A stretch of DNA of 64,000 bases from a virus (taxonomy: Duplodnaviria; Caudoviricetes). Of the stretch, positions 1 through 55,659 are shown piece after piece (within the stretch, counting starts at the first letter, position 1; the number at the start of each line of letters is the position of its first letter). The stretch is from the IMG/VR virus record IMGVR_UViG_3300042935_000900, positions 310 to 64,309 of that record; one strand, 5' to 3'. The translations under genes and the position numbers were made by a program. Under the pieces are notes generated by a model. It worked only from the letters and a program-made list of their open reading frames with translations. It made no database searches and was not told the DNA's origin.

Positions 1-683
1 CTTTAGGACCACAAGGACCTCAAGGTGCAACTGGACCAACAGGTGCTCAAGGAACTGTTGGTACATTAGGTGCTCAAGGAACCGCAGGTGCAACTGGTGC
101 TCAAGGTCTTACAGGCCCTGTCGCTGGAGCTGCAAACCAAGTGGTTTATAAAGACTCAGGAAATACCGTGACAGGAAGTAACAATCTTACATTTGACGGT
201 ACCAGATTAGACACTAGAGAGCTTATAACAGGTATCGGTAATTTTACAATAGCCCCGGATGCGGGTAATTATCCAGGATATGGAACTGCTGTTATTAAAG
301 CTGGTCAACCGATAATGATACAAGATGGTGACATGCAAACACCTATGCCAATGATGTGGGATTTAGGACCGGGTAATGGTATAGGTTATCAAATATCTTC
401 TATTAGATTTAAAGAAAATGTCCAAGACGTTGTTTTAAATTTAGAGGACTTTTTATCTAGAACAGCTAAGACTTATACAACTAAAGGATCTAAAAGACCA
501 GATATTGGTTTTATTGCCGAAGAATGGGTTAACTTTGATGAGAGATTAATTGCAAGAGATGGTGATGGTTTAATCATGACATTACATTATGATAAAATGA
601 CACCTTATTTGTACGAAGCTGTTAAAGCATTACGCAATGAGATTACAGAATTAAAAGCAGAAATTGCTTTATTAAAACAATAA
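1..683 (+). CDS. 5'-truncated collagen-like tail fibre protein with C-terminal peptidase S74 intramolecular chaperone
   Basis: Frame is open from nt 3 with Gly-X-Y repeats ([17 protein letters not shown]...) continuing into the 141..683 ORF. C-terminal SSIRFKENV, DIGFIAEE and LHYDKMTPYLYEAVKAL plus coiled coil are S74 motifs. Confidence 0.85.
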   Translation, partial: LGPQGPQGATGPTGAQGTVGTLGAQGTAGATGAQGLTGPVAGAANQVVYKDSGNTVTGSNNLTFDGTRLDTRELITGIGNFTIAPDAGNYPGYGTAVIKAGQPIMIQDGDMQTPMPMMWDLGPGNGIGYQISSIRFKENVQDVVLNLEDFLSRTAKTYTTKGSKRPDIGFIAEEWVNFDERLIARDGDGLIMTLHYDKMTPYLYEAVKALRNEITELKAEIALLKQ

Positions 684-702: not shown

Positions 703-1167
703 ATGGCAATAACTAGAATAAGTCTTCCAGATTCTTCAACATTAGATGCATCGTTAAAATTTGCAAGTACTGATTTAACGACGATAACTAATAAAATTCT
801 CAAGTCTGCAAGATCTGGAGTTAATAAACCAGTTAGCTATGCAGCTGATGAAGAATACACCAACCTTTATAAAGTTGGACCTGTTCTTAGAGATACAGTT
901 GATGGTGTTAAGAAATTAGAAGTTCAAGTACAAGCCCTAAGAAATTTCTTAGAAGGACAATTAGGAAGAGATGCATCAACATCAGATTTAACTCCAACTG
1001 TAAGATTTGCAAAATCAGATGGCACTAAAATAACTGTGTTTTTATTTAATGAATCGACTGGAGTAGTTATAGGTACTATAGATACTATTAATATAAAAAC
1101 ATTTAATATAGGCACCAACTATAAAATTGTTCAAAACGGAACAGACCTAGAATTTAGATACTCATAA
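703..1167 (+). CDS. hypothetical protein, probably fibre-associated
   Basis: 154 aa ORF tiling the fibre cluster; no recognised motif. Confidence 0.6.
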   Translation: MAITRISLPDSSTLDASLKFASTDLTTITNKILKSARSGVNKPVSYAADEEYTNLYKVGPVLRDTVDGVKKLEVQVQALRNFLEGQLGRDASTSDLTPTVRFAKSDGTKITVFLFNESTGVVIGTIDTINIKTFNIGTNYKIVQNGTDLEFRYS

Positions 1168-1168
1168 T

Positions 1169-2644
1169 ATGTCAACAAAAGCAATATACACTGAAGCTAA
1201 TAATACTTTTCATTTACCTGAAGGTACATTTGATGAAACGACATCATTGGCTACTGGTGTCAAGGCCATTCTTAAATCAACTGGCGATATGCAAAGTTTG
1301 GCTTTCAATGAAACTTATGATTCATTAGATGCAATAGGATGGCACATTAACGATCAAGGTTATAGATGGTGGAGTGATCCAAATAATCAAGCCTTTGGTA
1401 CTGAATATGGCGGAGGTAATTCAAACTGGGGTATTTACAAACAATCTAATATTTACACAACTGCTAGAAGACATGCTGGAAAGAATGGTTCTTATGGTGT
1501 ACATATTTTTAGATACCCTAATATAAGTTCAGATTCAACATGGGGAGGTTTATCATTATATCCACCTGCGGCATCTAAATTAAGAGGACATACTTATAGA
1601 TTTTCTTTTGATTACCGAGGTTATACAAATGGAAACGATGTTGGTGTTTATCAAAACACTACAGTAGGTTGGGGAGATCTAGGAATTGGATTACCAACTC
1701 CTTGGTGGTATGGTATAGGAGCATTTGATACAGACTGGGATTGGAGAAGATACGAATACGAATATACAATACAAGATGCTTATTTAGATTGGATTCCTGG
1801 ATCAAATTTAACACCATGGAATGCATCTACACAATATAGCGATTGGTATTATGGAGTTCCATATAATGGATATGTTTATAGACATTTAGGTGGATGGCCA
1901 GCTCCAACGATAGGCGTTACTCCTGATTTAGAATTAGGTACAAAATATTATGATAGATTTCCAATGACTGCTGGTTATTTTGATCTTTATAATAATCTTA
2001 AAATAGGATTTAGTTACGAAGCTCAAGGTAATAGAGGCACACACGTTTATATTGATAATATTCAATTAACAGATATTACAACTAATAAGTCTTTTAAATT
2101 AACTCCGAATGGTTGGGAATCTGATAATATGTCAGAAACTACGATGAAGATTGTAGCCAAAGGAACTGCATATCCAGGTATAGACATTGGAAATGGATCA
2201 GATCAATTTGCTGTTGAAGGTCCTAGTTCGCTTTATGTTAATGATACTTTAATTTATAGCGGAGATTCTGGTAGAGGATTAAGATTAACCATTTTTAATG
2301 GAACTAATGCAACACCTGTTTTTGATAGATCTTATGATACTTATGGTGATGATGCTGCAAGAAATCAATTAGCAACTATGTTGGCAACAATTACAAGTGC
2401 ACAAGTATGGGTTCTAACATCTTTTGATGCTATTAATCCAAATGCTATACTAGACAATCAAATGAAAACTATGAAATCAAGACTTTTAGTTAATAATGGT
2501 TCTATTCACTCAGTATACACGGGTGGTGGAGTAAGACATCCTTATGCTGCAGTCGGAAGAGGACAAAGAATTATAAAAGAAGATGGTTCTAATCAATTAG
2601 ATACTGTATACAAAAGAAAAGGAGTAATTGATATTAGAATATGA
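1169..2644 (+). CDS. tail-fibre associated protein with carbohydrate-binding-like region and C-terminal ILEI/GG domain (T4 gp35-like)
   Basis: C-terminal GRGLRLTIFNG, FDRSYDTYGDD, VLTSFDA and RHPYAAVG fit the ILEI/GG domain. Aromatic-rich middle region ending in VYIDNIQL is CBM-like. Confidence 0.6.
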   Translation: MSTKAIYTEANNTFHLPEGTFDETTSLATGVKAILKSTGDMQSLAFNETYDSLDAIGWHINDQGYRWWSDPNNQAFGTEYGGGNSNWGIYKQSNIYTTARRHAGKNGSYGVHIFRYPNISSDSTWGGLSLYPPAASKLRGHTYRFSFDYRGYTNGNDVGVYQNTTVGWGDLGIGLPTPWWYGIGAFDTDWDWRRYEYEYTIQDAYLDWIPGSNLTPWNASTQYSDWYYGVPYNGYVYRHLGGWPAPTIGVTPDLELGTKYYDRFPMTAGYFDLYNNLKIGFSYEAQGNRGTHVYIDNIQLTDITTNKSFKLTPNGWESDNMSETTMKIVAKGTAYPGIDIGNGSDQFAVEGPSSLYVNDTLIYSGDSGRGLRLTIFNGTNATPVFDRSYDTYGDDAARNQLATMLATITSAQVWVLTSFDAINPNAILDNQMKTMKSRLLVNNGSIHSVYTGGGVRHPYAAVGRGQRIIKEDGSNQLDTVYKRKGVIDIRI

Positions 2645-2805
2645 CACAATTAGAACACATAACTACAGAATTAAATTTTATTAATTGGACAATAGGACAG
2701 GCTTCTACAGAAGAATCACGTCAATTACTAGAAGATAAATATAAAACAAAGATTCAACAAATTCTTAATGAAATTGAATTGTTAAAACAGAATAATAATA
2801 AATAA
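2641..2805 (+). CDS. small hypothetical protein (54 aa, absent from ORF track)
   Basis: ATG 2641 overlaps the upstream stop (ATGA) and TAA 2803-2805 overlaps the next ATG; [13 protein letters not shown]...LLKQNNNK. Confidence 0.65.
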
Positions 2806-5390
2806 TGGCTACACTTAAGATAGGTACTACAATTGGTGGAAATGAAGTTTTACATATAGGTAACTTTGTTCCTGGCAATTACCCTCAATTTATTGGTGCT
2901 CAAGGTGCAACAGGACCTCAAGGTGCTACTGGACCTCAGGGTGCTACTGGACCAACAGGTGCTCAAGGAACGATAGGTAATACTGGACCACAAGGTGCAA
3001 CAGGACCTCAGGGTGGAACTGGTGCAACAGGCGCTCAAGGTGCTTTAGGACCACAAGGACCACAAGGAAATATTGGAAATACTGGACCACAAGGTGCTCA
3101 AGGAACAATAGGTAATACTGGACCACAAGGTGGAACTGGTGCAACAGGTGCTCAAGGTGCTAGAGGTGCTCAAGGTGATCGTGGGGCAACAGGTGCTCAA
3201 GGTTCTGCTGGAACTAATGGAACTAACGGTGCTCAAGGTGCTTTAGGACCTCAAGGTGGAACTGGTGCAACTGGTGCTCAAGGTGCTTTAGGACCTCAAG
3301 GTGGAACTGGACCAACAGGTGCTCAAGGTGCTTTAGGACCTCAAGGCGGAACTGGACCAACAGGTGCTCAAGGTGCCCGTGGTGCTCAAGGTGATCGCGG
3401 GGCAACAGGTGCTCAAGGTGCTGCTGGAAGTAATGGTGCTCAAGGTGCTTTAGGACCTCAAGGTGGTGGCGGTGCTACAGGTGCTCAAGGAGCTTTAGGA
3501 CCACAAGGACCTCAAGGAAATATTGGAAATACAGGACCTCAAGGTGGCGGTGGTGCTACAGGTGCTCAAGGTGACCGCGGGGCAACAGGTGCTCAAGGAG
3601 CTTTAGGACCTCAAGGACCTCAAGGAAATATTGGAAATACAGGACCTCAAGGTGGCGGTGGTGCTACAGGTGCTCAAGGAGCAAAAGGTGATGTTGGACC
3701 TCAAGGTGGAACTGGATTACAAGGTGGAACTGGACCTCAGGGTGGCGGTGGTGCTACAGGTGCTCAGGGTGCAATTGGACCAGTTGATTACTCAACAATA
3801 TCTGCGCCATGGGCATTAACTGGTGGAGGGTCTGTAACATGGTCTGGCAATGTATTAACTGTAAATGCTCGTATAATTGCCATACCTTTAAATAAATCGC
3901 TTGCTAGTAATGGATATTTTGATATAGGACCTTTTAATACAAGCATCCCATCGTGGAATACTCTATTCTATGTACCGCCTTCTGGTACAGATAATACATA
4001 TAAGCCTGCTAGTTTAGTATTAAAGGCATATACTGATAATCAGATAATTGCTGCAAATTGGATTCCAATCGCAACACATAATGGAGACGATTCTAGTTTA
4101 AGATACATTCCAGGATTTACATCTATACCGCCTGATGGAACTTATACTTCTTCGGGTGCTTCTAGATCATGGGCTGTTGGACCTCAAGGTTCTAAGGGCT
4201 CAACCGGAGATAAAGGTGCTGTTGGACCTCAAGGTGGAACTGGATTACAAGGTGGAACTGGACCTCAAGGTGCAACTGGACCTCAAGGTGGAACTGGATT
4301 ACAAGGACCTCAAGGAATAAAAGGTGATGTTGGACCACAAGGTGGAACTGGATTACAAGGTGGAACTGGACCTCAAGGTTTACAAGGTGGAGCAGGAACA
4401 GCTGGTACTAAAGGTGCAACTGGAGATAAAGGTGCAACTGGAAATACAGGTGGAACTGGACCAACAGGTATTGGAGTTGCTTCAGCTTCTGTTGCTGCTG
4501 GTAAATTAACAATATCACTTACTAACGATACTATTCCTATTAATGCTGTTAACGTAACTGGACCGACTGGATCACCAGGAACTAATGGAACTAATGGAAC
4601 TAACGGAACTCCAGGAGATAAAGGTGCAACCGGTGCTCCTGGATCAAATGGAACTCCCGGATCAAATGGAACTCCCGGATCAAATGGAACTCCCGGATCA
4701 AATGGAACTAATGGTTCAGCAGGAACTTCATTTACTTGGAGAGGAACTTATGTTAATGCTACTACATATAATCCAAGGGATACAGTTTACTATTTAGGAA
4801 GTACATACGTTTGTATACAACAAACTTTACAAAATCAAAATCCAACATATACTGAATTTTGGCAATTATCGTCTGCTAAAGGTGATGCTGGATCTACTGG
4901 TGCTCCTGGATCAAATGGTTCTAATGGAACTCCAGGTTCAAATGGAACTCCAGGTTCTAATGGAACGCCAGGTGCTAAAGGAGATACTGGTGCTGGCGGA
5001 ACTCCAGGTTCAAATGGAACTCCCGGAACAAACGGAGCTAAAGGTGAACCAGGAACTAATGGAACTAATGGAACTCCAGGTGGAACTGGACCTACTGGAC
5101 CTGCTGGACCTCAAGGTTTACAAGGAGCTACTGGACCTGCTGGAACTAATGGATCTCCAGGATATGGTTATACTGGACCTACAGGCCCTCCAGGCCCTCC
5201 AGGAAGTGGCGGCGGCGGAACTGGTACACCAGGTTGGACAATCGTATCACAAGAAGAAATTATGGATTATCCTGGACCTCCTATGATGCTTTACACAATT
5301 AATACTGGTGTGGTTGACACACAACAACCAGCGTTACCTGAAGGAGGCCCGTATATAATGCTTCGTCTTTATGGATCAACGGCTCGCTAA
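2805..5390 (+). CDS. collagen triple-helix repeat fibre protein
   Basis: Four Gly-X-Y blocks (about 2895-3785, 4179-4475, 4560-4730, 4881-5205) separated by globular inserts, including a CBM-like FTWRGTY...Y...[12 protein letters not shown] module. Confidence 0.9.
4641..4709 (+). repeat. 18-nt tandem repeat GGATCAAATGGAACTCCC, about 3.8 copies, encoding GSNGTP
   Basis: Identical copies read directly in the sequence. Confidence 0.9.
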
Positions 5391-5416
5391 ATCAATTATA
5401 AAAATAAATTAAAATA

Positions 5417-5665
5417 ATGGCAACGACTACAATTAATATTAATCAAGTAACAATACTTGGTAAAACTGCAACTAAATTAGTTATAGCTCCAATTTTTTAT
5501 ACCCTAAATTCAACTGGTGTAAGTATTGGTTATGAATTAAGAAACAGTGATGACGCGTTTATTGTTTCAGGTAGAACTGTAATTTCAGATATTTCTACTT
5601 GGGGTACAGATGATTCTGTTCTTATTGGTGCAATCTTAACGGCTTTGTCTTTGACAAAAGCTTAA
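5417..5665 (+). CDS. small hypothetical protein, probably fibre-associated
   Basis: 82 aa ORF after the collagen gene, with A-rich leader. Confidence 0.6.
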   Translation: MATTTININQVTILGKTATKLVIAPIFYTLNSTGVSIGYELRNSDDAFIVSGRTVISDISTWGTDDSVLIGAILTALSLTKA

Positions 5666-5667
5666 TT

Positions 5668-5697
5668 GAAACTTCGTTCTGGAAATTCGTATAAATA
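5668..5697 (+). promoter_or_regulatory. overlapping GAAAC-N16-GTATAA promoter and TATAAATA (T4 late-type) box
   Basis: GAAAC 5668-5672, GTATAA 5689-5694, TATAAATA 5690-5697, upstream of the oxygenase/GT operon. Confidence 0.6.
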
Positions 5698-5712
5698 GAC
5701 AAAGACATTTAT

Positions 5713-6300
5713 ATGAATTTCCAGCAACAAACTAATGATTCGCAAAACTTTTATTGGTATAAACAAGGTTTTACCAAAGAAGAATTAGACAAAATTTACA
5801 ATGATGTAGCTCAGTTACCATTTGAAAAAGCTACAATCTTAGGTGAAGACAATACTGAAGCTATTAAAGCTATTAGAAGTTCTTCAATCAAATGGATTCC
5901 CAAAGATCAAAATTGGCAATGGCTTTATGATAAGCTAATGAATATGGCACTAGAAGCTAATAATTCTTTATGGCATTTTGATCTAATCTCAGTTGATGAG
6001 AAAATACAATACACAGAATATTATGATAATGCCGATGGTCATTATACTTGGCATCAAGATATTGGTGGTGGAAGTGCTAGCAGACGTAAAGTTTCTATTA
6101 CAGTTCAATTATCAGATCCTGAAGAATACCAAGGTGGTGATTTAGAAATGTGGCAAGGTGGAGAATCTGTTGTCAAATCTGCAAGAGGCGCAGGAGTTGT
6201 TTTTATTTTTCCAAGTTACATGATGCACAGAGTTACTAAAGTAACCAAAGGAACTCGTCGTTCTTTTGTATTATGGGTCGGTGGTCAACATTATCGTTAA
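5713..6300 (+). CDS. 2OG-Fe(II) oxygenase (PKHD/prolyl 4-hydroxylase-like)
   Basis: YTWHQD (HxD), RKVSITVQL, EYQGGDL, FPSYMMHRV and RRSFVLW carry the Fe and 2OG ligands. Confidence 0.9.
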   Translation: MNFQQQTNDSQNFYWYKQGFTKEELDKIYNDVAQLPFEKATILGEDNTEAIKAIRSSSIKWIPKDQNWQWLYDKLMNMALEANNSLWHFDLISVDEKIQYTEYYDNADGHYTWHQDIGGGSASRRKVSITVQLSDPEEYQGGDLEMWQGGESVVKSARGAGVVFIFPSYMMHRVTKVTKGTRRSFVLWVGGQHYR

Positions 6301-7322
6301 TGCGAATATTAATTTACGTAGGATACCAATCACAGCCATTTAATGGCTCGACAATTTCATCACTAGGTTTAGGTGGAACTGAGCAAGCTTGTACATATTT
6401 AGCAAATGAATTAGCTAAACTTGGACACGATGTCCAAGTAAGTGGCCAAGTTATCAAAGAAACCCACAAGAACGTTGTATGGAATGATGAGATTTCAAAT
6501 ACTCATTTTGATGTGGTTATTGCTGCAAGTTACATACACTATATTCCAGAACTAGCTGAAAGAAATGTTACTTATACCAAGTCATATTTCTGGGTTCACA
6601 ATGAGGATTTCTTTCCTTGGTGGAAAGGTGAAGCTTTACCAGAAAACGGTGCTTTATTCTTAGCAGATGCCAGATTAACTGGAATTATTTGTTTAACTGA
6701 ATGGCACGCAAATCAATTTAAAGAAGCCTATAATATTATTAAGCCTATTTATATCATAGGCAATGGCATTGATTCATCTACATTTCCAGCAGCTAAGAAA
6801 AACCACAATCATTTCATTTATTCATCAGCAGCTGAAAGAGGTTTGGAATCTCTTTTGAAATGTTGGCCAGCAATCAAATCATTTTGGCCTAATGCAATCC
6901 TAAAAGTATTTTCACCAGCTTATGCAAGTAGCAAAGACATCGTTAGACGATATGGAAAAGCTGGCGTGCAATTTTATGGCACGGTCGATCAAACAACTTT
7001 ACATAAGCACATGGAAGAGAGTCAATTTTGGCTGCATCCAACTGAGTATAAAGAAACTTACTGTATTACTGCATTAGAGATGCAGATGTGTGGTGTGGTA
7101 CCTATTACATCAAACCTTGCGGCATTAAATGAAACAGTTGGTGAGCGAGGCTTTTTAGTTTCGCATGAAACAAATGGCTTAGTGCCATATATAAACATTA
7201 TATCTAATCTTATGCATTCGAAAGAATTGGTAAAGACATATTCTGACAAAGGTCGAGCATGGGCAAAATGCCAAACATGGAGAATGAGAGCATTAGAATG
7301 GAACAAATTATTACAGTCATGA
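6300..7322 (+). CDS. GT-B glycosyltransferase, GT4/Glycos_transf_1-like
   Basis: GLGGTEQ, IIGNGID, YSSAAERGL and ETYCITALE (EX7E). Start placed at ATG 6300 (TAATG coupling) rather than 6273. Confidence 0.88.
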   Translation: MRILIYVGYQSQPFNGSTISSLGLGGTEQACTYLANELAKLGHDVQVSGQVIKETHKNVVWNDEISNTHFDVVIAASYIHYIPELAERNVTYTKSYFWVHNEDFFPWWKGEALPENGALFLADARLTGIICLTEWHANQFKEAYNIIKPIYIIGNGIDSSTFPAAKKNHNHFIYSSAAERGLESLLKCWPAIKSFWPNAILKVFSPAYASSKDIVRRYGKAGVQFYGTVDQTTLHKHMEESQFWLHPTEYKETYCITALEMQMCGVVPITSNLAALNETVGERGFLVSHETNGLVPYINIISNLMHSKELVKTYSDKGRAWAKCQTWRMRALEWNKLLQS

Positions 7323-8617
7323 AAATAGATCAAGTTTACATAATTAATCTAAAATCTTCTAGATCTGATATAGAAACTAGAATTAATCAATTGGGTTTAC
7401 CAGAAAATACGCCATTCTTTATAATGAATGCTATAGATGGTATGACAGCCGAATCACAATTTGGGCCACATAAACTTTATCCACACTGGAAGATTGAATC
7501 AGACAATAAGTGGTGGAATAGAGACCTAACTCCCGGAGAAATTGGGTGTTCTTTAAGTCACATAGCCGTATGGAAAGATGCTTTATTAAAAGACTTTAAA
7601 AATATTTTAGTTTTAGAAGAAGACTTTTTATCAAATGGATCTTTGGCTTTAAAGGATTTAAAGTTACCGACAAAATATGATTTGCTTTATTTGGGTAGAA
7701 ACAAAGTTGATGAATCAATAGCAGAAGACGAGGTTCTAGATATTTTCTATATGCCTTCTTATAGTTATAATTCACATGCTTATGTGTTAAACAAATCCGG
7801 TATTAAAAAACTAGCTGCTTGTAATTTACAGGATAATATTATCCCAGTTGATGAGTTTTTATCTACAACATTTTGTTTGCATCCAAGACAAGACCTTAGA
7901 CACTTATTTGGAGATCCTAAAATATATGCTTTGACATTAAAAAATCAGGCCATTGGTCAAATACCTCTTAATATTCGCCCATCAACAATCGAAGTTAATA
8001 AACCTAAATATGATATTTTGGATGCTTCTGATTGGAATCTTTGGAAATCTAAGTACATCGATAAGGTTATGGCAAGAGGTGAATATGATCTGTTAGTAGA
8101 TGAGATTGGACCTCAGTATAGCAATATCTTTGAGTTTCCGCTATTTACGCAATTGTTCTGCGATGAATTGATTGCGATGGCTGAAGCTGAAAATAAATGG
8201 ACTGAAGGTCGACATGAGTTTTATCCAACGAACGATGTTCTTTTAAATGAATTAGGCTTAGGTGATATTTACAAAAGAGTTATCAGAGAAATTGTAACTC
8301 CATTAGCAACCCATATTTGGAAATTAGAAGGAGCATGGTTAGCAAATCCAACTGATGAAACATTTATGATTAAGTATTCAATGGACAAACAAGGTCACCT
8401 TTCATTACATCACGATCATAGTTACTTTACATGTGGCGTTAGATTAAATGATGAGTTTGAAGGAGGTGGAACTTATTTCCCAAAATATGGTGTTTGTGTA
8501 ACTCCTAGAAGAAATGGCAATGCCTTCTTACACCCTGGAGCAATAACACATAAACATGGTGCAAGACCAATTCACGCGGGTATTCGTTATATTATAGTTT
8601 CATTTATTAGACCGTAA
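7319..8617 (+). CDS. fusion of GT25 (procollagen galactosyltransferase COLGALT-like) and PLOD-type lysyl hydroxylase domain
   Basis: N-half: VYIINL, AIDG, LTPGEIGCSLSH, LVLEED, YDLLYLGR, HAYV, IIPVDEFL. C-half: FPLFT..FCDELI, PTND, FMIKY, HHDHS, FEGGG..F, LHPG.ITH.H, RYIIVSF. Start at ATG 7319 (ATGA coupling). Confidence 0.88.
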   Translation: MKIDQVYIINLKSSRSDIETRINQLGLPENTPFFIMNAIDGMTAESQFGPHKLYPHWKIESDNKWWNRDLTPGEIGCSLSHIAVWKDALLKDFKNILVLEEDFLSNGSLALKDLKLPTKYDLLYLGRNKVDESIAEDEVLDIFYMPSYSYNSHAYVLNKSGIKKLAACNLQDNIIPVDEFLSTTFCLHPRQDLRHLFGDPKIYALTLKNQAIGQIPLNIRPSTIEVNKPKYDILDASDWNLWKSKYIDKVMARGEYDLLVDEIGPQYSNIFEFPLFTQLFCDELIAMAEAENKWTEGRHEFYPTNDVLLNELGLGDIYKRVIREIVTPLATHIWKLEGAWLANPTDETFMIKYSMDKQGHLSLHHDHSYFTCGVRLNDEFEGGGTYFPKYGVCVTPRRNGNAFLHPGAITHKHGARPIHAGIRYIIVSFIRP

Positions 8618-8619
8618 GT

Positions 8620-9045
8620 ATGGAATTTCAAGAAGATTTAAAAGGCAACAGAATTAGCCCAGTTTTAAACAATGGCGTAAAGAATTTTATCATTGATATA
8701 GATGGAACTATATGTGATGATATTCCAAACGAAGAATCATGGAGAATGGTCACTGCGCTTGAATTGCCCGGTGCAAAAGACTCTATCAACAGATGGTACG
8801 ACAATGGCCACATCATTACGTTTTTTACAGCAAGAACAGAAGAGCACAGACAAGTAACTGAAACTTGGTTAAAACAACATGGCTTTGATTATCATGCTTT
8901 GATCATGAATAAACCAAGAGGTGGTAATTATATTGTCATAGACAATCACATGTTTGTGGCAAGTCATTATCAAGGTGATTGGGATCAAGTTAAGACAGAA
9001 GTAAACAGTGCTCATTCAGAGCCATACGAGTTTAAATTTCATTGA
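8620..9045 (+). CDS. HAD-superfamily phosphatase
   Basis: DIDGT motif I, FFTAR motif II, KPRGG and IDN. Confidence 0.8.
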   Translation: MEFQEDLKGNRISPVLNNGVKNFIIDIDGTICDDIPNEESWRMVTALELPGAKDSINRWYDNGHIITFFTARTEEHRQVTETWLKQHGFDYHALIMNKPRGGNYIVIDNHMFVASHYQGDWDQVKTEVNSAHSEPYEFKFH

Positions 9046-9051
9046 TAAATA
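9044..9051 (+). promoter_or_regulatory. late-type promoter GATAAATA, 4 nt before ATG
   Basis: GATAAATA-gatt-ATG(9056). Confidence 0.55.
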
Positions 9052-9055
9052 GATT

Positions 9056-9298
9056 ATGAACGATATTGACATGAAGTGTTTTATGATTAGTGTATTCATC
9101 CACCACATGGATGTTGATATGCTATTTGATTTTCTTCATGAGAGGGTGAAATCTCCACCACCTTATTGGCACAGCGAAACAAGTTGTCCGCCATCAGTTT
9201 CTGGAGGATATGTTATGGTCACTTTAAATTACAGCCAATTTGATTTGTTGAGAGGTCAAAGAAGTTGGGATTTTGGCGAGTTTGACAAAAACAATTAA
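9056..9298 (+). CDS. hypothetical protein
   Basis: 80 aa ORF directly after a promoter motif. Confidence 0.6.
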   Translation: MNDIDMKCFMISVFIHHMDVDMLFDFLHERVKSPPPYWHSETSCPPSVSGGYVMVTLNYSQFDLLRGQRSWDFGEFDKNN

Positions 9299-9311
9299 AT
9301 TAAATTAAATT

Positions 9312-9419
9312 ATGGAAAAAGAAAGAAGCAAATACCTTTTAAACGTAGAAGGTAAAAAATTCAGAGCAAACACAATGCTAGAATTGATTTTCAAGGTTCT
9401 AAGAAAAAAACATTCTTAA
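9312..9419 (+). CDS. small basic hypothetical protein (35 aa, absent from ORF track)
   Basis: MEKERSKYLLNVEGKKFRANTMLELIFKVLRKKHS, preceded by TTAAA repeats. Confidence 0.45.
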   Translation: MEKERSKYLLNVEGKKFRANTMLELIFKVLRKKHS

Positions 9420-9421
9420 AT

Positions 9422-9447
9422 AAACCTTTTCGATCCTCTGTGTATAA
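9422..9447 (+). promoter_or_regulatory. AAAC-N16-GTATAA promoter
   Basis: Recurring bipartite motif, upstream of the exonuclease. Confidence 0.6.
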
Positions 9448-9468
9448 TACACAAGATCTGATAAAAAC

Positions 9469-9498
9469 AAAGCCAAGGTCTTAGATCTTGGCTTTTTT
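9469..9498 (+). terminator. intrinsic terminator-like hairpin
   Basis: AAAGCCAAGGTC-tta-GATCTTGGCTTT followed by a T run. Confidence 0.65.
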
Positions 9499-9525
9499 AT
9501 TGGACCCAACTTAAAAATTTAAAGT

Positions 9526-11828: not shown

Positions 11829-12635
11829 ATGACTTATTATGATGTATTAGGTGTTAGTGAAGCTGCTACTCAAGATGACATTAAAAAGGCTTATAGAAAA
11901 TTAGCCATTCAACATCATCCTGATAAAACTGGCGGAGAAGATACTAAGTTTAAAGAAATTGCTCAAGCTTATGAAACATTAGGCAACGAGCAAAGTCGAC
12001 AAGCTTACGATCACAAACGTCGAGATCCATTCTCTGATCCAAACTTTTTTAATAACATGAACAATGGCGATAATCTTGCCGATATGTTCAATCAAATGTT
12101 TGGTGGTGGCCGAAGAAATCCAAACTCCAAAGGACCTGATGTTAGAGTTCAATTAATGTTAACATTTGAAGAGAGTTTCTTTGGGTGCAGTAAGATCTTA
12201 GATCTAGGTGCAGGTGAATTTACAGTTAATATACCAAGAGGAGTTGTTACTAATACAAATTTAAAGGTCCATGGCCAAGGCCAAAATAATCCTTATAATC
12301 ATAATGCTAGTCGTGGAGATGCAATCATTGTTATTCATGTACAACAAAACGACAAGTTCGTAGTAAATGGAATAGATATATGGATTGACATTAATATAAA
12401 TTGGTGGGATATTCAATTAGGATGTGATGCAATAATTGAACACCCTGAAGGTAAAATGAATATTAAGATTCCCGAAGGAACAAAACCCGGCAAAATATTA
12501 AGAGTTAAAGATAAGGGTATGCATGTTGCGAATGGAATGATAGGTGCTTTAATGTGTAAAATCAACGCGATATATCCTGAACTAAATCAAGAACAATACG
12601 AATTAATAAAAAAGATAAAAGATGTTGCTATTTAA
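11829..12635 (+). CDS. dnaJ: DnaJ-class co-chaperone without zinc finger (CbpA-like)
   Basis: [23 protein letters not shown] region and C-terminal [15 protein letters not shown]. Confidence 0.9.
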
Positions 12636-12873
12636 TATCGAAGACGAAAACAATTCTCATAAAGATTTGCGTAGCTTTGTTGAAGCCAAGGTACTTGACA
12701 TGATGTATATTGGTATTGTAAGCGGTAATGGCATTAAGCCTGATGCAAATCCAAATGATATTATGCAAAGTATTGATTTGCTAATCAAAAAATTTGAATC
12801 TCAAGAAGCTTATGAGAAATGTAATGAGCTTAAAAAAGTAAAACAAAAATACGAAGAACATGCTACATATTAA
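12622..12873 (+). CDS. hypothetical protein with EAYEKC (UVR-like) motif
   Basis: 83 aa; shared motif. Confidence 0.6.
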
Positions 12874-13051
12874 AGTAGAAAATAATAACATAGAAAAAGC
12901 TCTTAAGGAATACAAACGAAAGGTTTTTAAAGTTAAGCAAATTCAAGATCTGAGAGAAAGACAAGAATTCGTTAAACCATCTGTTAAAAATAGATCTAAA
13001 GTTATTAAGGCCAAATACATTCAAAAGTTAAGAGATCAAGAAGAATTTTAA
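12860..13051 (+). CDS. rpsU: phage-encoded ribosomal protein bS21
   Basis: NIEKALKEYKRK, LRERQEFVKPSV and KAKYIQ (Bacteroidota-type C-terminus). Confidence 0.9.
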   Translation: MLHIKVENNNIEKALKEYKRKVFKVKQIQDLRERQEFVKPSVKNRSKVIKAKYIQKLRDQEEF

Positions 13052-13456: not shown

Positions 13457-14161
13457 ATGAACGGAAACCAGAAGAAAAGCCCTAGGGCTGCAAGATCACA
13501 AGAACAAGCAAATGAATCAATGAAAACCGTCTCACTTAGACAAAACCAAAAGAAGTATTTAGATACTATTTTAGAAAATGATATAACGTTCTGTTATGGT
13601 CCAGCTGGAACCTCAAAAACTTTTACGGCATGTTACGCTGCATTAGAATTATTAAAGAAAAAAGAAATTAAAAGAATTATATTATGTAAGCCTATTCAAG
13701 AGGCTGGTGAAAAATTAGGTTTTTTACCAGGAACTGTTGATGAAAAGGTTGAACCATACTTAAAATCATATAGATCTAGTTTTGAGAAGATTGTTGGCTT
13801 CTCTGCATCTTATAATATGTTTGGTAGTAAATTAATAGAATTTCAACCATTAGCATATATGAGAGGCGATACATTTGATGATGCCTTAATGATTCTAGAC
13901 GAAGCTCAAAATGCAGACTTTAAACAATTAATGCTTTTTGTAACTCGTATGGGTCAAAACTCAAAAGTAATTGTTGCAGGTGATGTTAGTCAATACGATA
14001 TTGCCAAAAACAAAGTAGCTTTACCAGCATTTATGAAATTAATGACTGGAGTTAAAGGTGTTGGTACTCACGTCTTCGGAGAGACTGACATTGTTAGAGC
14101 TAAAATCCTTCAGGAAATCGTACACAGATACGAAAAATGGAAGGACGAGAACGAGAAATGA
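13457..14161 (+). CDS. phoH: PhoH-family ATPase
   Basis: GPAGTSKT, EAGEKLGFLPG, PLAYMRG, ILDEAQN, TRMG and GDVSQ. Confidence 0.95.
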   Translation: MNGNQKKSPRAARSQEQANESMKTVSLRQNQKKYLDTILENDITFCYGPAGTSKTFTACYAALELLKKKEIKRIILCKPIQEAGEKLGFLPGTVDEKVEPYLKSYRSSFEKIVGFSASYNMFGSKLIEFQPLAYMRGDTFDDALMILDEAQNADFKQLMLFVTRMGQNSKVIVAGDVSQYDIAKNKVALPAFMKLMTGVKGVGTHVFGETDIVRAKILQEIVHRYEKWKDENEK

Positions 14162-34329: not shown

Positions 34330-35637
34330 ATGACACAAAAAAATCAAGACAATTCTAAGACACCAAAAATTAGAATTGGCGAAAAAAACAAAATCGAGGC
34401 AATCAGTCTAGAAAGCCTTGTAACAATCACACCATCTGAGAAAAAAGTTGTAGACCTAGATGCTCACAACAAAGACGAAGCATGGTATCTTCCTAACGGT
34501 GAATTTAATTGGGACGCTTTCGAAAACGAAGCAAAACCAAAAAGAACCATAAATCCCCACATTAAATTAAAAAATCCAACTGACAAAGTATTTTCTCATG
34601 CGTCTTATGCGCAAGATTTATACAATATGATGATTGGTTCAGCTAGTGTTTTTGATAACAAGTTTATTCTTGAAGTTGGTAAAGTTTACGAAGGTAAGGT
34701 TTATGGAATTTCAAGCAATTGGATGAGTATCGATGTTGATTATAGAGAATTAGTCTATGTTAATATTGAAAAAGAAGTTGCAAATGATTTAAAAACAGGG
34801 GATAAAACTTCGGTTAAAATCGTTAGAAACAGAAGTAAAGGTGAAGACTTTGTTGTAGGTTCAATTGAACAAGGTGTACAACATGCTATCTTTGAAGAGT
34901 TAATGAGTAATATTGACAACAATATCGCTTATGCCGGTCTAGTTAAACAAATGATCCCCGAAGGTGGTTATATTGTAACTATTAATGGTATCGATTGCTT
35001 TATGCCAGGATCTTTAGCCGGTATGAATAAATTACATGACTTTAGTTCTATAATTGGAACTGATATGTATGTAGTTCCTATTTCATTCTCAGCTGAAAGA
35101 GGCACAGTAGTTGTTTCACACAGAGCTTACTTAAAAGCAATGGTTCCTTCGATCCTCGAAGATCTTAGAAATGCAAAAGATGAAGTTATTACAGGTTTTG
35201 TTACTGGTAGTGCTAAATTCGGTGTATTCTGTGAATTCAATGGTTGTTTAACTGGTATGATCCACATCAATGACTTGGATGAAGTACATGCTGCTAAGTT
35301 AAGAAAACATGAAATTAATCCAGGAGATGCTATTGAGTTTAAAGTAAAAGAAATCATTTCTGATACTAAGATTACATTGACTCAGTTGATCCACAACGAT
35401 CCATGGAATGGTATCACAGAAAGATACAAGATTCCTGCAAGAGTAACTGGTATTGTTAAGTCTATTAAAGATTACGGTATGTTTGTTGCAATCGAAGAAG
35501 GTGTTATTGGTTTATTACACGTAAGTGAATTGCCAGAGGGTGCTATCAAAGATTATGCAAAGAATCAAGAAGTGCAAGTAGAAATCTCAAGAATTGAAGA
35601 AATTACCAAAAAAGTATTCTTAAAACTTATTTCTTAA
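34330..35637 (+). CDS. rpsA: phage-encoded ribosomal protein bS1-like (about four S1 domains)
   Basis: EFNWD, GKVYEGKV, GGYIV.I.GI..FMPGS, VVVSHR, FGVF..GMIHI and DYGMFV.IEEGV.GLLHVSE. Confidence 0.82.
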   Translation: MTQKNQDNSKTPKIRIGEKNKIEAISLESLVTITPSEKKVVDLDAHNKDEAWYLPNGEFNWDAFENEAKPKRTINPHIKLKNPTDKVFSHASYAQDLYNMMIGSASVFDNKFILEVGKVYEGKVYGISSNWMSIDVDYRELVYVNIEKEVANDLKTGDKTSVKIVRNRSKGEDFVVGSIEQGVQHAIFEELMSNIDNNIAYAGLVKQMIPEGGYIVTINGIDCFMPGSLAGMNKLHDFSSIIGTDMYVVPISFSAERGTVVVSHRAYLKAMVPSILEDLRNAKDEVITGFVTGSAKFGVFCEFNGCLTGMIHINDLDEVHAAKLRKHEINPGDAIEFKVKEIISDTKITLTQLIHNDPWNGITERYKIPARVTGIVKSIKDYGMFVAIEEGVIGLLHVSELPEGAIKDYAKNQEVQVEISRIEEITKKVFLKLIS

Positions 35638-54051: not shown

Positions 54052-55659
54052 ATGTCAATTAACATCAAAGAAATTTTTCAGTCAGATAATCTATCTACTT
54101 CACAAGATAAGATTAACTATAATTTTGACCAGATCTTAGCAAACGGTGGTGGATCACAAGGTTTAAAAGGAGATAAGGGCTCAACTGGTGCAATAGGCAG
54201 CATTGGACCCAAAGGTAGTAAAGGTGAAGTAGGTGGAACAGGTGCTAAAGGTAGTACAGGTGCTGATGGATATTGGACTCTAGAAAGTTATACTAGCGGT
54301 ATTCCACTTGATGATCAACATACTCTTTTACCAAAAATTGAGCCAGTATCTGGTGCCAAGGGTTATAAACCAACTAATTTGGTATTAGGTGTTGATGATG
54401 CTTTATATACGTTAGATGCTATTGATAAAAATGCTCTAGTTAGTTTAGTGAGCGGAAAAGGTAGTGCTGATTGGGATGATTTAATTAGAATAAGAATAAG
54501 AAATAATGATGGCACATTTAATGCTACATCTGCTGTAGTTAGATTAATTCCTGGTACAGGAGGTGCTAAATTAAAAATAGCAACTATTGACGGAAATAAC
54601 AGTTTTGAACTTGCCTCTAATAGAATAGACTTAGTAGGTAATGATACATCATTAATAGATGGAAATGGTTTAACAAAACTTAGAATAACTAATTCCTTTA
54701 ATGAAGCGGCTGGTACATGGAATTTCTTAACTGGTAGTTCAATTAATATTGCCGCAAACGGCACTGCTATAACTCTTAAAAATGATGGCAACTCTAGTTT
54801 ATTAGGTAATAATATTTTTGGAGCTACTGGCAAAACTAATCAAATTACTGGTACAACTAATACAATTACTGGTACAAATATAGTTACCGGAGCTGAGTTT
54901 AGAATTAACCCAACTGGTGCTTCACCGGCTCTTAATAAAGTATTAGTTGCGCAAGATACTAATGGTAAAGCTCTTTGGAAAAACCCAACAGAAGTAATGG
55001 GAATGTACCCAATTGGAACTATTGTATTTGTCAATCCTGCTGATATTATAGATACTTATTTTAGTATTACTAATTATTTATATCCTTCGCTTTTAGAAAA
55101 TGCATCAGACTCTTATCAATTTTTTGGAAGAGGAAAATCGGGCACTAGATGGGGAGGTTGGTATCTTTTGTTTGGACAAACTAACGCATGGTATAACGTT
55201 TCTACATTAATTAGTTATGTGCCAACAAATATTCCAGGAAGTTTATTAATGGGAGCATCAGCTCCTGATAATACAGACCTGCCTGGTGATACTTATACAC
55301 TCGATGGAGATTTTAAATCTTCTATGGGTACTCAAGGTTATAATCCACCAGTTGGATATGGTACTTCTTATCAACCTACTCTTAGAGGAGATTATACAGG
55401 CGTGGGTTCTCAAGGAGTTATAGGAACAGGAACGTTAACTAATGTAGGCGATTTATTAACTCAATTTGGTTCAAGTGCTAGTGTTTACGATGTATTAGAC
55501 GGTGCTGAAATCATTGACGGTGCGGGAAGCAGTTCTGTCAATGGTTATAGTATTCATCCTCATCCCAATTTTCATCCGTTACCGATGGCCGTTTATTTAG
55601 GCAGAACTGATTTAATATATGATTATAGTGCAGGTAGTTCTGAAGAAAATGATGTATAA
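54052..55659 (+). CDS. tail fibre-like protein with a short Lys-rich collagen segment
   Basis: KINYNF N-terminus; 13 Gly-X-Y triplets at 54151-54270; YPIGTIV collar-like motif. Confidence 0.65.
   Translation: MSINIKEIFQSDNLSTSQDKINYNFDQILANGGGSQGLKGDKGSTGAIGSIGPKGSKGEVGGTGAKGSTGADGYWTLESYTSGIPLDDQHTLLPKIEPVSGAKGYKPTNLVLGVDDALYTLDAIDKNALVSLVSGKGSADWDDLIRIRIRNNDGTFNATSAVVRLIPGTGGAKLKIATIDGNNSFELASNRIDLVGNDTSLIDGNGLTKLRITNSFNEAAGTWNFLTGSSINIAANGTAITLKNDGNSSLLGNNIFGATGKTNQITGTTNTITGTNIVTGAEFRINPTGASPALNKVLVAQDTNGKALWKNPTEVMGMYPIGTIVFVNPADIIDTYFSITNYLYPSLLENASDSYQFFGRGKSGTRWGGWYLLFGQTNAWYNVSTLISYVPTNIPGSLLMGASAPDNTDLPGDTYTLDGDFKSSMGTQGYNPPVGYGTSYQPTLRGDYTGVGSQGVIGTGTLTNVGDLLTQFGSSASVYDVLDGAEIIDGAGSSSVNGYSIHPHPNFHPLPMAVYLGRTDLIYDYSAGSSEENDV

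Follow-up and report, generated by a model that had tools for sequence, protein, structure and literature searches.

A predicted collagen-modifying gene cluster with an L230-like GT25–lysyl hydroxylase behind the fibre genes of a lake-water myovirus

Results and Discussion

Behind a gene for a collagen-like tail fibre, a tailed bacteriophage from lake water (Caudoviricetes; IMG/VR record IMGVR_UViG_3300042935_000900) carries genes for an Fe(II)/2-oxoglutarate (2OG) oxygenase, a glycosyltransferase of the GT4 family, a fusion of a GT25 glycosyltransferase with a lysyl hydroxylase (LH) and a HAD-superfamily phosphatase (Table 1). We consider it likely that the enzymes encoded from position 5713 to ~9300 modify the collagen fibre of the phage itself: LH would hydroxylate lysines at the Y position of the G-X-Y triplets, GT25 would add a hexose and GT4 would extend it. 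The DNA that we analysed, here called the window, comprises 64,000 of the 64,309 bases of the record, whose completeness is estimated by CheckV at ~24%. The feature as such is real, and it is a bacteriophage variant of the kind represented by L230 of mimivirus and by the metazoan PLOD and COLGALT enzymes. What the sequences show directly is the homology with its catalytic residues, the order and fusion of the genes, and the enrichment of lysine. The lysine branch, which we infer from this, is well supported; what the enzymes act on, which sugar they use, in which order they work and what the phage gains (stability or hydration of the fibre, shielding from proteases, or recognition of the host) are inferred as well. 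An initial annotation of the window had proposed a complete animal-like pathway acting on the phage's own collagen. From this proposal, hydroxylation and glycosylation of lysine stand, given the homology to LH3, L230 and COLGALT1, the synteny and the enrichment of lysine at Y, whereas the proline branch and the role assigned to the HAD phosphatase find no support.

A compact fusion protein resembling L230

The central element is the 432-residue fusion protein. Residues 201-432 match the lysyl hydroxylase domain of human LH3/PLOD3 (residues 478-716) with an E-value of 1.4e-26, and residues 265-430 match the LH domain of mimivirus L230 (PDB 6ax6) with 7.3e-23. The Fe(II) triad and the arginine that contacts 2OG align with those of the known lysyl hydroxylases (HHDHS/HHDSS, THKH/THYH and RYI/RYI), and 18 homologs with 45-83% identity all retain H364, H365, D366, H411, H413 and R423. 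The other half, residues 2-207, matches the GT25 domain of human COLGALT1 with an E-value of 7e-17 (up to 2e-16), compared to only 0.0027 for a bacterial GT25. Its LVLEED motif aligns with LVFEDD of COLGALT1, PVDEFL is identical in both, PF01755 is matched above cut-off (E 7.9e-20), and E100 and D102 are invariant. Because the two domains follow each other in the same order as in L230, a GLT25D1-like transferase and then the hydroxylase, the protein is, as judged from these alignments, a compact L230-like enzyme in a bacteriophage. The GT25 domain could use galactose like COLGALT1 or glucose like L230.

Relatives of the fusion protein are numerous. Searching 1.84 billion representatives yielded 3435 matches at E <= 1e-3, 901 at 1e-10 and at least 150 at 1e-30; 460 proteins were found at E <= 1e-10 among 90% clusters, and at least 332 viral contigs carry such a relative. 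Among ten long relatives that were looked up by cluster, the one bearing a name is a 598-residue homolog with GT25 and Fe2OG-dioxygenase names, encoded on a 4.8-Mb contig of the Bacteroidota bacterium Aureibacter tunicatorum.

Linkage to collagen genes across viruses

Co-occurrence with collagen genes in other phages, a check that the initial annotation had asked for, was analysed in the best 80 of at least 332 viral loci, which form 47 clusters at 90% identity. With a collagen open reading frame (ORF) defined as one with at least 90 residues in G-X-Y runs, 20 of the 33 dereplicated loci with enough flank have such an ORF ending, in the same orientation, within 5 kb upstream, and none of 42 dereplicated loci has one starting within 5 kb downstream. 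Since this order recurs in many divergent viral contigs and in cultured phages, it is by comparison more than chance. It is found with three enzyme architectures, namely separate GT4 and GT25-LH proteins, a single GT4-GT25-LH protein and a GT25-PLOD_GT-LH protein, and it spans phage types that are not related to each other, namely a jumbo myovirus, cyanomyoviruses and a podovirus of 45 kb.

Cultured phages show the same arrangement. In the Synechococcus phages S-PRM1, S-CAM9 and S-8S55, a GT25+PLOD_GT+LH gene follows a collagen-bearing fibre with 22-24 lysines at Y and 0 at X. The roseophage CRP-6 (L098:4952-8564) encodes the fibre gp60 with 99 triplets and 26 lysines, all at Y and 0 at X, and one gene further gp58, a GT25+PLOD_GT+LH protein annotated as "hypothetical". 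The LH3-type GT domain PF25342 is matched in these cyanophage and CRP-6 versions with E-values from 9e-46 to 4.5e-28. The text of the CRP-6 paper (PMC6918029) does not contain the words collagen, hydroxylase or glycosyltransferase.

Beyond direct adjacency, PF01391 matches were present in 10 of 15 whole carrier contigs, the remaining five being fragments with 13-44% completeness. When ten contigs of the "unlinked" kind were searched over their full length, five had giant collagen genes elsewhere, at a distance of 12-35 kb. As an observation of its own, giant collagen ORFs, three in number (1121, 1067 and 2645 residues), lie directly upstream of the GT4-GT25-LH gene in the complete 170-kb phage record that holds locus L034 (G004:C1:~102900-115700).

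Lysine at the Y position of the presumed substrate

The 861-residue protein upstream of the enzymes contains 183 G-X-Y triplets in four blocks (residues 31-327, 459-557, 586-642 and 693-788), and by its long unbroken G-X-Y runs and its fibre-related neighbours, with an S74 domain and a connector-like domain, it is taken to be a collagen-like tail-fibre protein. Where about nine G-X-K-G sites had been noted before, we count exactly nine (GAKG and GDKG three times each, GSKG, GIKG and GTKG once each), and the lysines of the collagen blocks are distributed nine to Y and none to X. The prolines at Y that had been pointed out are likewise present, with 18 G-X-P-G sites, 15 of them within runs of at least six triplets; within the collagen blocks, proline occurs 15 times at Y and 37 times at X. 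As arginine has the same bias (five at Y, none at X), the preference of lysine for Y in this protein is partly a general property of collagen.

A larger set of 28 LH-linked loci with 8616 triplets has 1170 lysines at Y and 18 at X. Since arginine shows the same bias here (339 at Y, 27 at X), the Y position alone is not diagnostic for lysine, and therefore a control sample of collagens was drawn. It consists of 80 IMG/VR collagen loci found by a degenerate Gly-codon pattern and replaced a helicase-gene control scan, which gave only six loci. Of these control loci, 44 pass the same collagen rule as the linked set, and a search of 71 control records with the enzyme profile gave an LH match in none and a GT25-only match in two. 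The median share of triplets with lysine at Y is 13.2% for the 28 linked loci, compared to 2.0% for the 44 controls, which stem from viral records without an LH match (Mann-Whitney p 4e-5, uncorrected for relatedness). Proline at Y is not enriched in linked over control collagens (0.7% versus 2.0%, p 0.48).

These data have to be weighed against the possibility that the enzymes act away from the fibre, on host envelope glycans or lipopolysaccharide (LPS), on other proteins of phage or host or on small molecules, and that their place next to fibre genes is a gene order inherited in a few lineages. Pfam names GT25 an LPS-biosynthesis family, and the part of Iyer et al. 2010 available to us proposes secondary-metabolite roles for dioxygenase arrays of cyanophages (PMC2938197). 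Several of our own results also count against modification of the fibre. No collagen gene is found within 5 kb upstream in 13 of the 33 loci, and some of the non-adjacent loci lie within sugar-nucleotide or glycosyltransferase clusters (L027 in a sugar-nucleotide cluster, L017 among glycosyl- and sulfotransferase-like genes). In a quick tree, collagen adjacency is clade-structured, with at least three deep clades that have it and two clades plus scattered rows that lack it, so that the 20 linked loci stand for far fewer independent events. With 4.9% of triplets, lysine at Y is only modest in the window collagen, and five linked loci have 1% or less; the low values of L011, the nearest relative of the window, and of L029 come from short ORFs only (49 and 32 triplets), which are truncated where the locus ends. 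To this, the shared bias of arginine has to be added, as well as the composition of the control set, which is neither dereplicated nor habitat-matched and whose records are often fragments. Finally, stand-alone LH-like or OGFOD2-like proteins of 210-271 residues with 38-48% identity to the LH half are encoded in chromosomes of Thiothrix and Thiolinea (Thiotrichaceae; L101-L116, with L108:10043-10708 from Thiothrix eikelboomii) among housekeeping neighbours such as RecQ, GlyQS and UbiD, with no collagen ORF within 10 kb. These bacterial relatives without collagen mean that the LH domain is not exclusive to collagen contexts and that the fold alone is no proof.

Nevertheless, we regard action away from the fibre as unlikely. 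The GT25 half is far nearer to COLGALT1 than to a bacterial GT25, and the fusion of LH to GT25 can be understood only as a way to carry out two successive reactions at a single residue, as L230 does. Besides, the link to collagen holds across all three enzyme architectures and the unrelated phage types, lysine at Y is enriched in the linked collagens, and half of the "unlinked" contigs that were searched whole encode giant collagens after all.

The oxygenase, GT4 and HAD genes

The 195-residue oxygenase has the HxD...H motif and the basic 2OG ligand of the 2OG/Fe(II) double-stranded beta-helix enzymes, with H114, D116, H172 and R182 invariant in 26 sequences, and its AlphaFold2 model (pLDDT 89.2) predicts a prolyl-hydroxylase-like fold. 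Foldseek searches with this model returned 3dkq and PiuC (9ghl/9qn*), followed by PHD2, a Dictyostelium PHD and the prolyl 4-hydroxylase (P4H) of P. putida; the PiuC/YbiX/PHD group is the best fold match, with E-values of 3e-10 to 1e-8 and TM-scores of 0.6-0.75. Concerning sequence, the PiuC/YbiX "PKHD-type" proteins (3dkq, 9ghl, 9qn0-4), PHD2 and PPHD of P. putida also match best (E 7e-7 to 3e-6), and the NCBIfam models PRK05467 (PiuC/YbiX) match below cut-off. In contrast to these relatives, none of which is a collagen P4H, the phage enzyme has a shorter chain and is encoded within a collagen-fibre module. Our literature search found no paper on the substrate of PiuC. Of 20 collagen-linked loci, 16 have an oxygenase homolog within 4 kb, compared to 2 of 10 unlinked ones (Fisher p 0.004), and in S-PRM1 the gp161 protein with 33% identity adjoins the LH gene; the oxygenase does belong to the same module as GT25-LH.

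The GT4 protein is matched above cut-off by PF13692 (38.1 bits, cut-off 27), PF13439 (33.7, cut-off 28.5) and PF00534 (33.1, cut-off 26.4), and no close solved relative of it was found. In 20 of 40 dereplicated loci it is fused in frame to GT25-LH as a protein of 714-830 residues, in 14 more of them it is encoded directly upstream of GT25-LH, and in the cyanophages and CRP-6 a PLOD-GT domain occupies its place. Because of this fusion and of the replacement by a PLOD-type GT domain elsewhere, addition of a second sugar is our best guess for its role, and the corresponding suggestion of the initial annotation is plausible.

The HAD protein has the residues of motifs I-IV (D26, D28 and T30 of DIDGT, T70, K98 and D108-N109), with no variation among 14 sequences, and PF24694 and PF03767 match above cut-off. 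Its AlphaFold2 model is poor (pLDDT 57.6), and no informative solved relatives were found. The gene is present in only 15 of the 80 loci, always in a lineage that also has the genes for an 80-residue protein (p80) and an exonuclease.

In a complete animal-like pathway, the oxygenase would be a collagen P4H acting on proline at Y and the HAD phosphatase would clear the nucleotide product. The prolyl-hydroxylase-like fold, with PHD2, the Dictyostelium PHD and the P. putida enzyme among the top Foldseek hits, fits such a pathway, and so do the association of the oxygenase with collagen-linked clusters, its place beside the LH gene in cyanophages, the G-X-P-G sites of the window collagen, and the HAD gene with its invariant catalytic motifs only 2 nt after the LH gene. 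However, the nearest solved and curated relatives of the oxygenase are of the PiuC/YbiX type, followed by PHD-type enzymes, and its sequence matches include no collagen P4H. Proline at Y makes up only 2.5% of the 8616 triplets in the linked collagens and does not exceed the controls. Nor are X-Pro-Gly sites in these collagens associated with the oxygenase: the median for proline at Y is only 0.5% in loci that have it, compared to 4.7% in loci that lack it, and an animal-like role as P4H is therefore unsupported. In addition, oxygenase homologs occur in 281 phage records but GT25-LH matches in only 11, and the HAD gene, confined to one lineage, travels with p80 and the exonuclease. We know of no HAD phosphatase that hydrolyses uridine diphosphate in a collagen pathway. 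Taken together, a collagen P4H and a HAD enzyme removing the nucleoside diphosphate, both put forward in the initial annotation, appear quite improbable to us, and modification of lysine by LH, GT25 and GT4 is the reading that we retain.

Gene layout and transcription signals

Gene content and coordinates had been described correctly, with collagen genes, one small ORF, oxygenase, GT4, GT25 fusion and HAD in this order (Table 1), and so had the tight packing: the oxygenase and GT4 genes overlap in TAATG (6298-6302), the GT4 and GT25-LH genes in ATGA (7319-7322). At the upstream edge of the window, the 329-residue frame that is open from the end of the record, and which contains the fibre gene truncated there, gives collagen matches above cut-off. 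A promoter-like motif, AAAC-N16/17-RTATAA, occurs in 11 copies in the window compared to 2.27 expected, a number that none of 100 shuffles reached. The copies on the + strand (5669, 9422, 14161, 18499, 19434, 23724, 26186 and 60360) are mostly directly 5' of non-structural genes, and the motif may represent a promoter class of the phage or its host. As one copy precedes the oxygenase gene and a hairpin with a T run lies at 9469-9495, the enzyme genes from 5713 to ~9300 look like a transcription unit apart from the fibre genes. For the T4 late-promoter box TATAAATA, the window shows no enrichment (12 found, 10.8 expected), and the copy at 5690 is not taken as a sign of late expression.

Table 1. 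Features of the collagen-fibre and enzyme region and a further fibre-like gene of the window
Feature	Position	Strand	Remarks
Collagen-like tail-fibre gene, 3' part	3..683	+	5' end outside the window; Collagen (E 1.6e-5) and C-terminal Peptidase_S74 chaperone domain (E 4.8e-4), both slightly below Pfam cut-offs; tail-fibre PHROGs
154-aa ORF	703..1167	+	Between fibre genes; no family match; homologs between collagen genes in L013 and L038
491-aa fibre-associated protein	1169..2644	+	Residues 343-448 match phrog_1154 "long tail fiber protein proximal connector" (E 1.7e-9); ILEI matched weakly, under cut-off
54-aa ORF	2641..2805	+	Overlaps both neighbours; no family match
861-aa collagen-like fibre protein, presumed substrate	2805..5390	+	PF01391 (E 1.4e-56); tail-fibre PHROGs, matched chiefly via the repeats
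82-aa ORF	5417..5665	+	No family match; no tblastn match in the 80 loci, i.e. not kept in relatives
Promoter-like motif AAAC-N16-RTATAA	5669..5694	+	19 nt 5' of the oxygenase ATG
195-aa Fe(II)/2OG oxygenase, PiuC/YbiX/PHD (prolyl-hydroxylase-like) kind	5713..6300	+	2OG-FeII_Oxy_3 (E 4e-14)
340-aa GT4 (GT-B) glycosyltransferase, proposed second-sugar transferase	6300..7322	+	Three GT1/GT4 Pfam families
432-aa GT25 + lysyl-hydroxylase-like fusion	7319..8617	+	GT25 at residues 2-207; PLOD/L230-like LH at residues ~201-432
141-aa HAD-superfamily phosphatase	8620..9045	+	Co-transcribed by position; phrog_1238
80-aa ORF (p80)	9056..9298	+	In 18 of 80 loci, always with an exonuclease homolog; travels with HAD
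Terminator-like hairpin, 12 pairs, then T run	9469..9495	+	Likely end of the enzyme transcription unit
535-aa fibre-like protein, possible further substrate	54052..55659	+	14-triplet collagen block; collagen E 1.4e-6 (below cut-off); 5 Lys at Y, 0 at X; tail-fibre PHROGs

The phage and its occurrence

All large ORFs of the window are on the + strand. A structural protein of 1177 residues matches jumbo phages of Tenacibaculum, Chryseobacterium and Flavobacterium as well as Sphingomonas phage PAU and Lak-type records, and a baseplate wedge protein is encoded too. The full order of collagen, oxygenase, GT4, GT25-LH, HAD, p80 and exonuclease was also found in L100, a contig binned in a metagenome-assembled genome of Flavobacteriaceae. 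The window is from a freshwater (lake-water) myovirus, which is probably large and probably has a Bacteroidota host. At first a pelagimyophage or cyanophage had been assumed; the jumbo-phage, PAU and Lak-type matches of the structural protein led us to reject this.

In 23 lake-water metagenome runs, 82-96% of the sampled words of 2805-9500 are present. Positions 4888-9500 were recovered on one contig with no differing letter in lake runs from both 2020 and 2024, and two letters differ over 4680-9500 in a lake run of 2023. Using blastn, positions 5400-9100 gave no match in 50,697 phage records. In an estuary metatranscriptome run, contigs of a relative, mostly less than 95% alike, cover the 82-residue ORF, the oxygenase, GT25, the LH-HAD junction and HAD-p80; we do not count them as evidence of transcription, and the uncovered bins of this run (6613-6836, 7061-7284 and 9301-9500) carry no meaning. 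That the cluster consists of decaying or hitch-hiking genes without present function is highly improbable: nothing specific speaks for it except that the finding comes from sequence alone, whereas the frames are intact and tightly coupled, the catalytic residues do not vary among homologs that are 37-83% identical, the region lies on single contigs in runs of different years as just described, and hundreds of relatives exist.

The assemblies of runs X1, X2 and X17 fall apart at the collagen repeats (2805-5390) into a large number of short contigs, which show skip and back joints. This may mean that fibre genes with different repeat numbers occur side by side in the lake populations, or that the joints were produced by the assembly.

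Among the other genes of the window are a homolog of ribosomal protein bS21 (12860-13051; PF01165, E 3.9e-12) and, within the baseplate and structural region, a 435-residue protein with S1 RNA-binding domains (34330-35637; PF00575, E 1.6e-19, two stretches). The early genes include a full DnaJ, with J domain and C-terminal domain, and a PhoH-like ATPase (11829-12635 and 13457-14161).

Proposed mechanism and comparison with known systems

In the mechanism that we propose, the LH domain, using Fe(II), 2OG and O2, would hydroxylate the Y lysine of G-X-K-G sites in fibre chains that are still unfolded. The fused GT25 domain would then attach galactose or glucose to the new hydroxyl, and the neighbouring GT4 would most likely extend this hexose. 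The PiuC/PHD-like oxygenase is taken as a part of the same module, and a role as collagen P4H is not claimed for it.

The closest precedent is L230 of Acanthamoeba polyphaga mimivirus, a virus-encoded enzyme of 895 residues with an N-terminal GLT25D1-like transferase followed by a C-terminal LH. According to the part of PMC9614988 at hand, L230 hydroxylates collagen lysines and adds glucose, the collagen of mimivirus itself is modified, and the enzyme has to be a dimer for activity; earlier work on L230 (Luther 2011; Guo 2018) is used here as cited in that source. Mimivirus and the phage are alike in that they encode their own collagen-like proteins with lysine often at Y. With 432 residues, however, the phage protein is only half as long as L230, whose middle region it lacks, and it comes from a tailed bacteriophage, so that its workplace would be the bacterial cytoplasm. 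Its gene is also accompanied by those for GT4, the PiuC-like oxygenase and HAD directly behind the fibre genes, and activity, which has been established for L230, is here predicted from homology.

Similarly, the metazoan enzymes LH3/PLOD3 (6fxk, 8one) and COLGALT1/GLT25D1 (9evj, 8zgc) share with the phage protein the Fe/2OG residues of LH and the LV(L/F)E(E/D)D and PVDEFL motifs. In metazoans, however, hydroxylase and galactosyltransferase are separate proteins of the endoplasmic reticulum (ER), whereas they form one polypeptide in the phage. The second transferase would be a non-homologous GT4 in the phage, in LH3 it is a GT domain of the same protein, and of the metazoan pathway neither an ER nor a signal peptide nor a lysyl oxidase partner was seen for the phage.

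A prokaryotic case differs in its chemistry, as BclA of Bacillus anthracis is O-glycosylated on threonine and not via hydroxylysine. LH and GT25 are not involved there. Together with other modified bacterial collagen-like proteins, BclA and the P4H of B. anthracis are precedents on the prokaryotic side, both for the glycosylation of such proteins and for a bacterial P4H that is active on collagen peptides, as described in the accessible part of PMC8968730. The same part of this source describes prokaryotic collagens as mostly free of hydroxylation and glycosylation, and collagens of phages, too, are presented there as essentially unmodified. With respect to hydroxylases, bacterial beta-hydroxylases were predicted to modify collagen-like proteins in the section of Iyer et al. 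2010 that we could consult (PMC2938197), and a survey of auxiliary metabolic genes (AMGs) called the role of viral P4H "cryptic" (PMC9301287). In the literature that we searched, there is no description of such a collagen-modifying system in a phage, in agreement with the initial annotation, which knew of none.

Significance

Hydroxylation and glycosylation of collagen lysines are regarded as peculiar to animals, and mimivirus L230 as the sole exception among viruses, in the part of PMC9614988 available to us. A far-reaching extension, which we regard as speculative and rather unlikely, is that aquatic tailed phages commonly build hydroxylysine-linked glycans on collagen-like fibres by means of a modular toolkit, in which LH and GT25 would be joined by GT4 or a PLOD-type GT as the second transferase and a PiuC-like oxygenase would add a non-animal hydroxylation; this phage and bacterial pool, and not an invention of animals, might then be the source of the giant-virus enzymes (L230, R699) and of metazoan PLOD and COLGALT.

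Because the cultured phages CRP-6, S-PRM1, S-CAM9 and S-8S55 carry the system, the idea is directly testable, and the podovirus CRP-6 is the handiest experimental system for the question of fibre modification. If the proposed modification is true, it would represent a new type of virion glycosylation, which could affect host recognition, fibre stability and the arms races between phages and hosts in lakes and oceans, and it would give a function to many genes annotated as "GT25 LPS" or "2OG oxygenase AMG". Furthermore, it would provide compact enzymes of the bacterial cytoplasm for the production of hydroxylated and glycosylated recombinant collagen, and it would have implications for where the metazoan enzymes came from.

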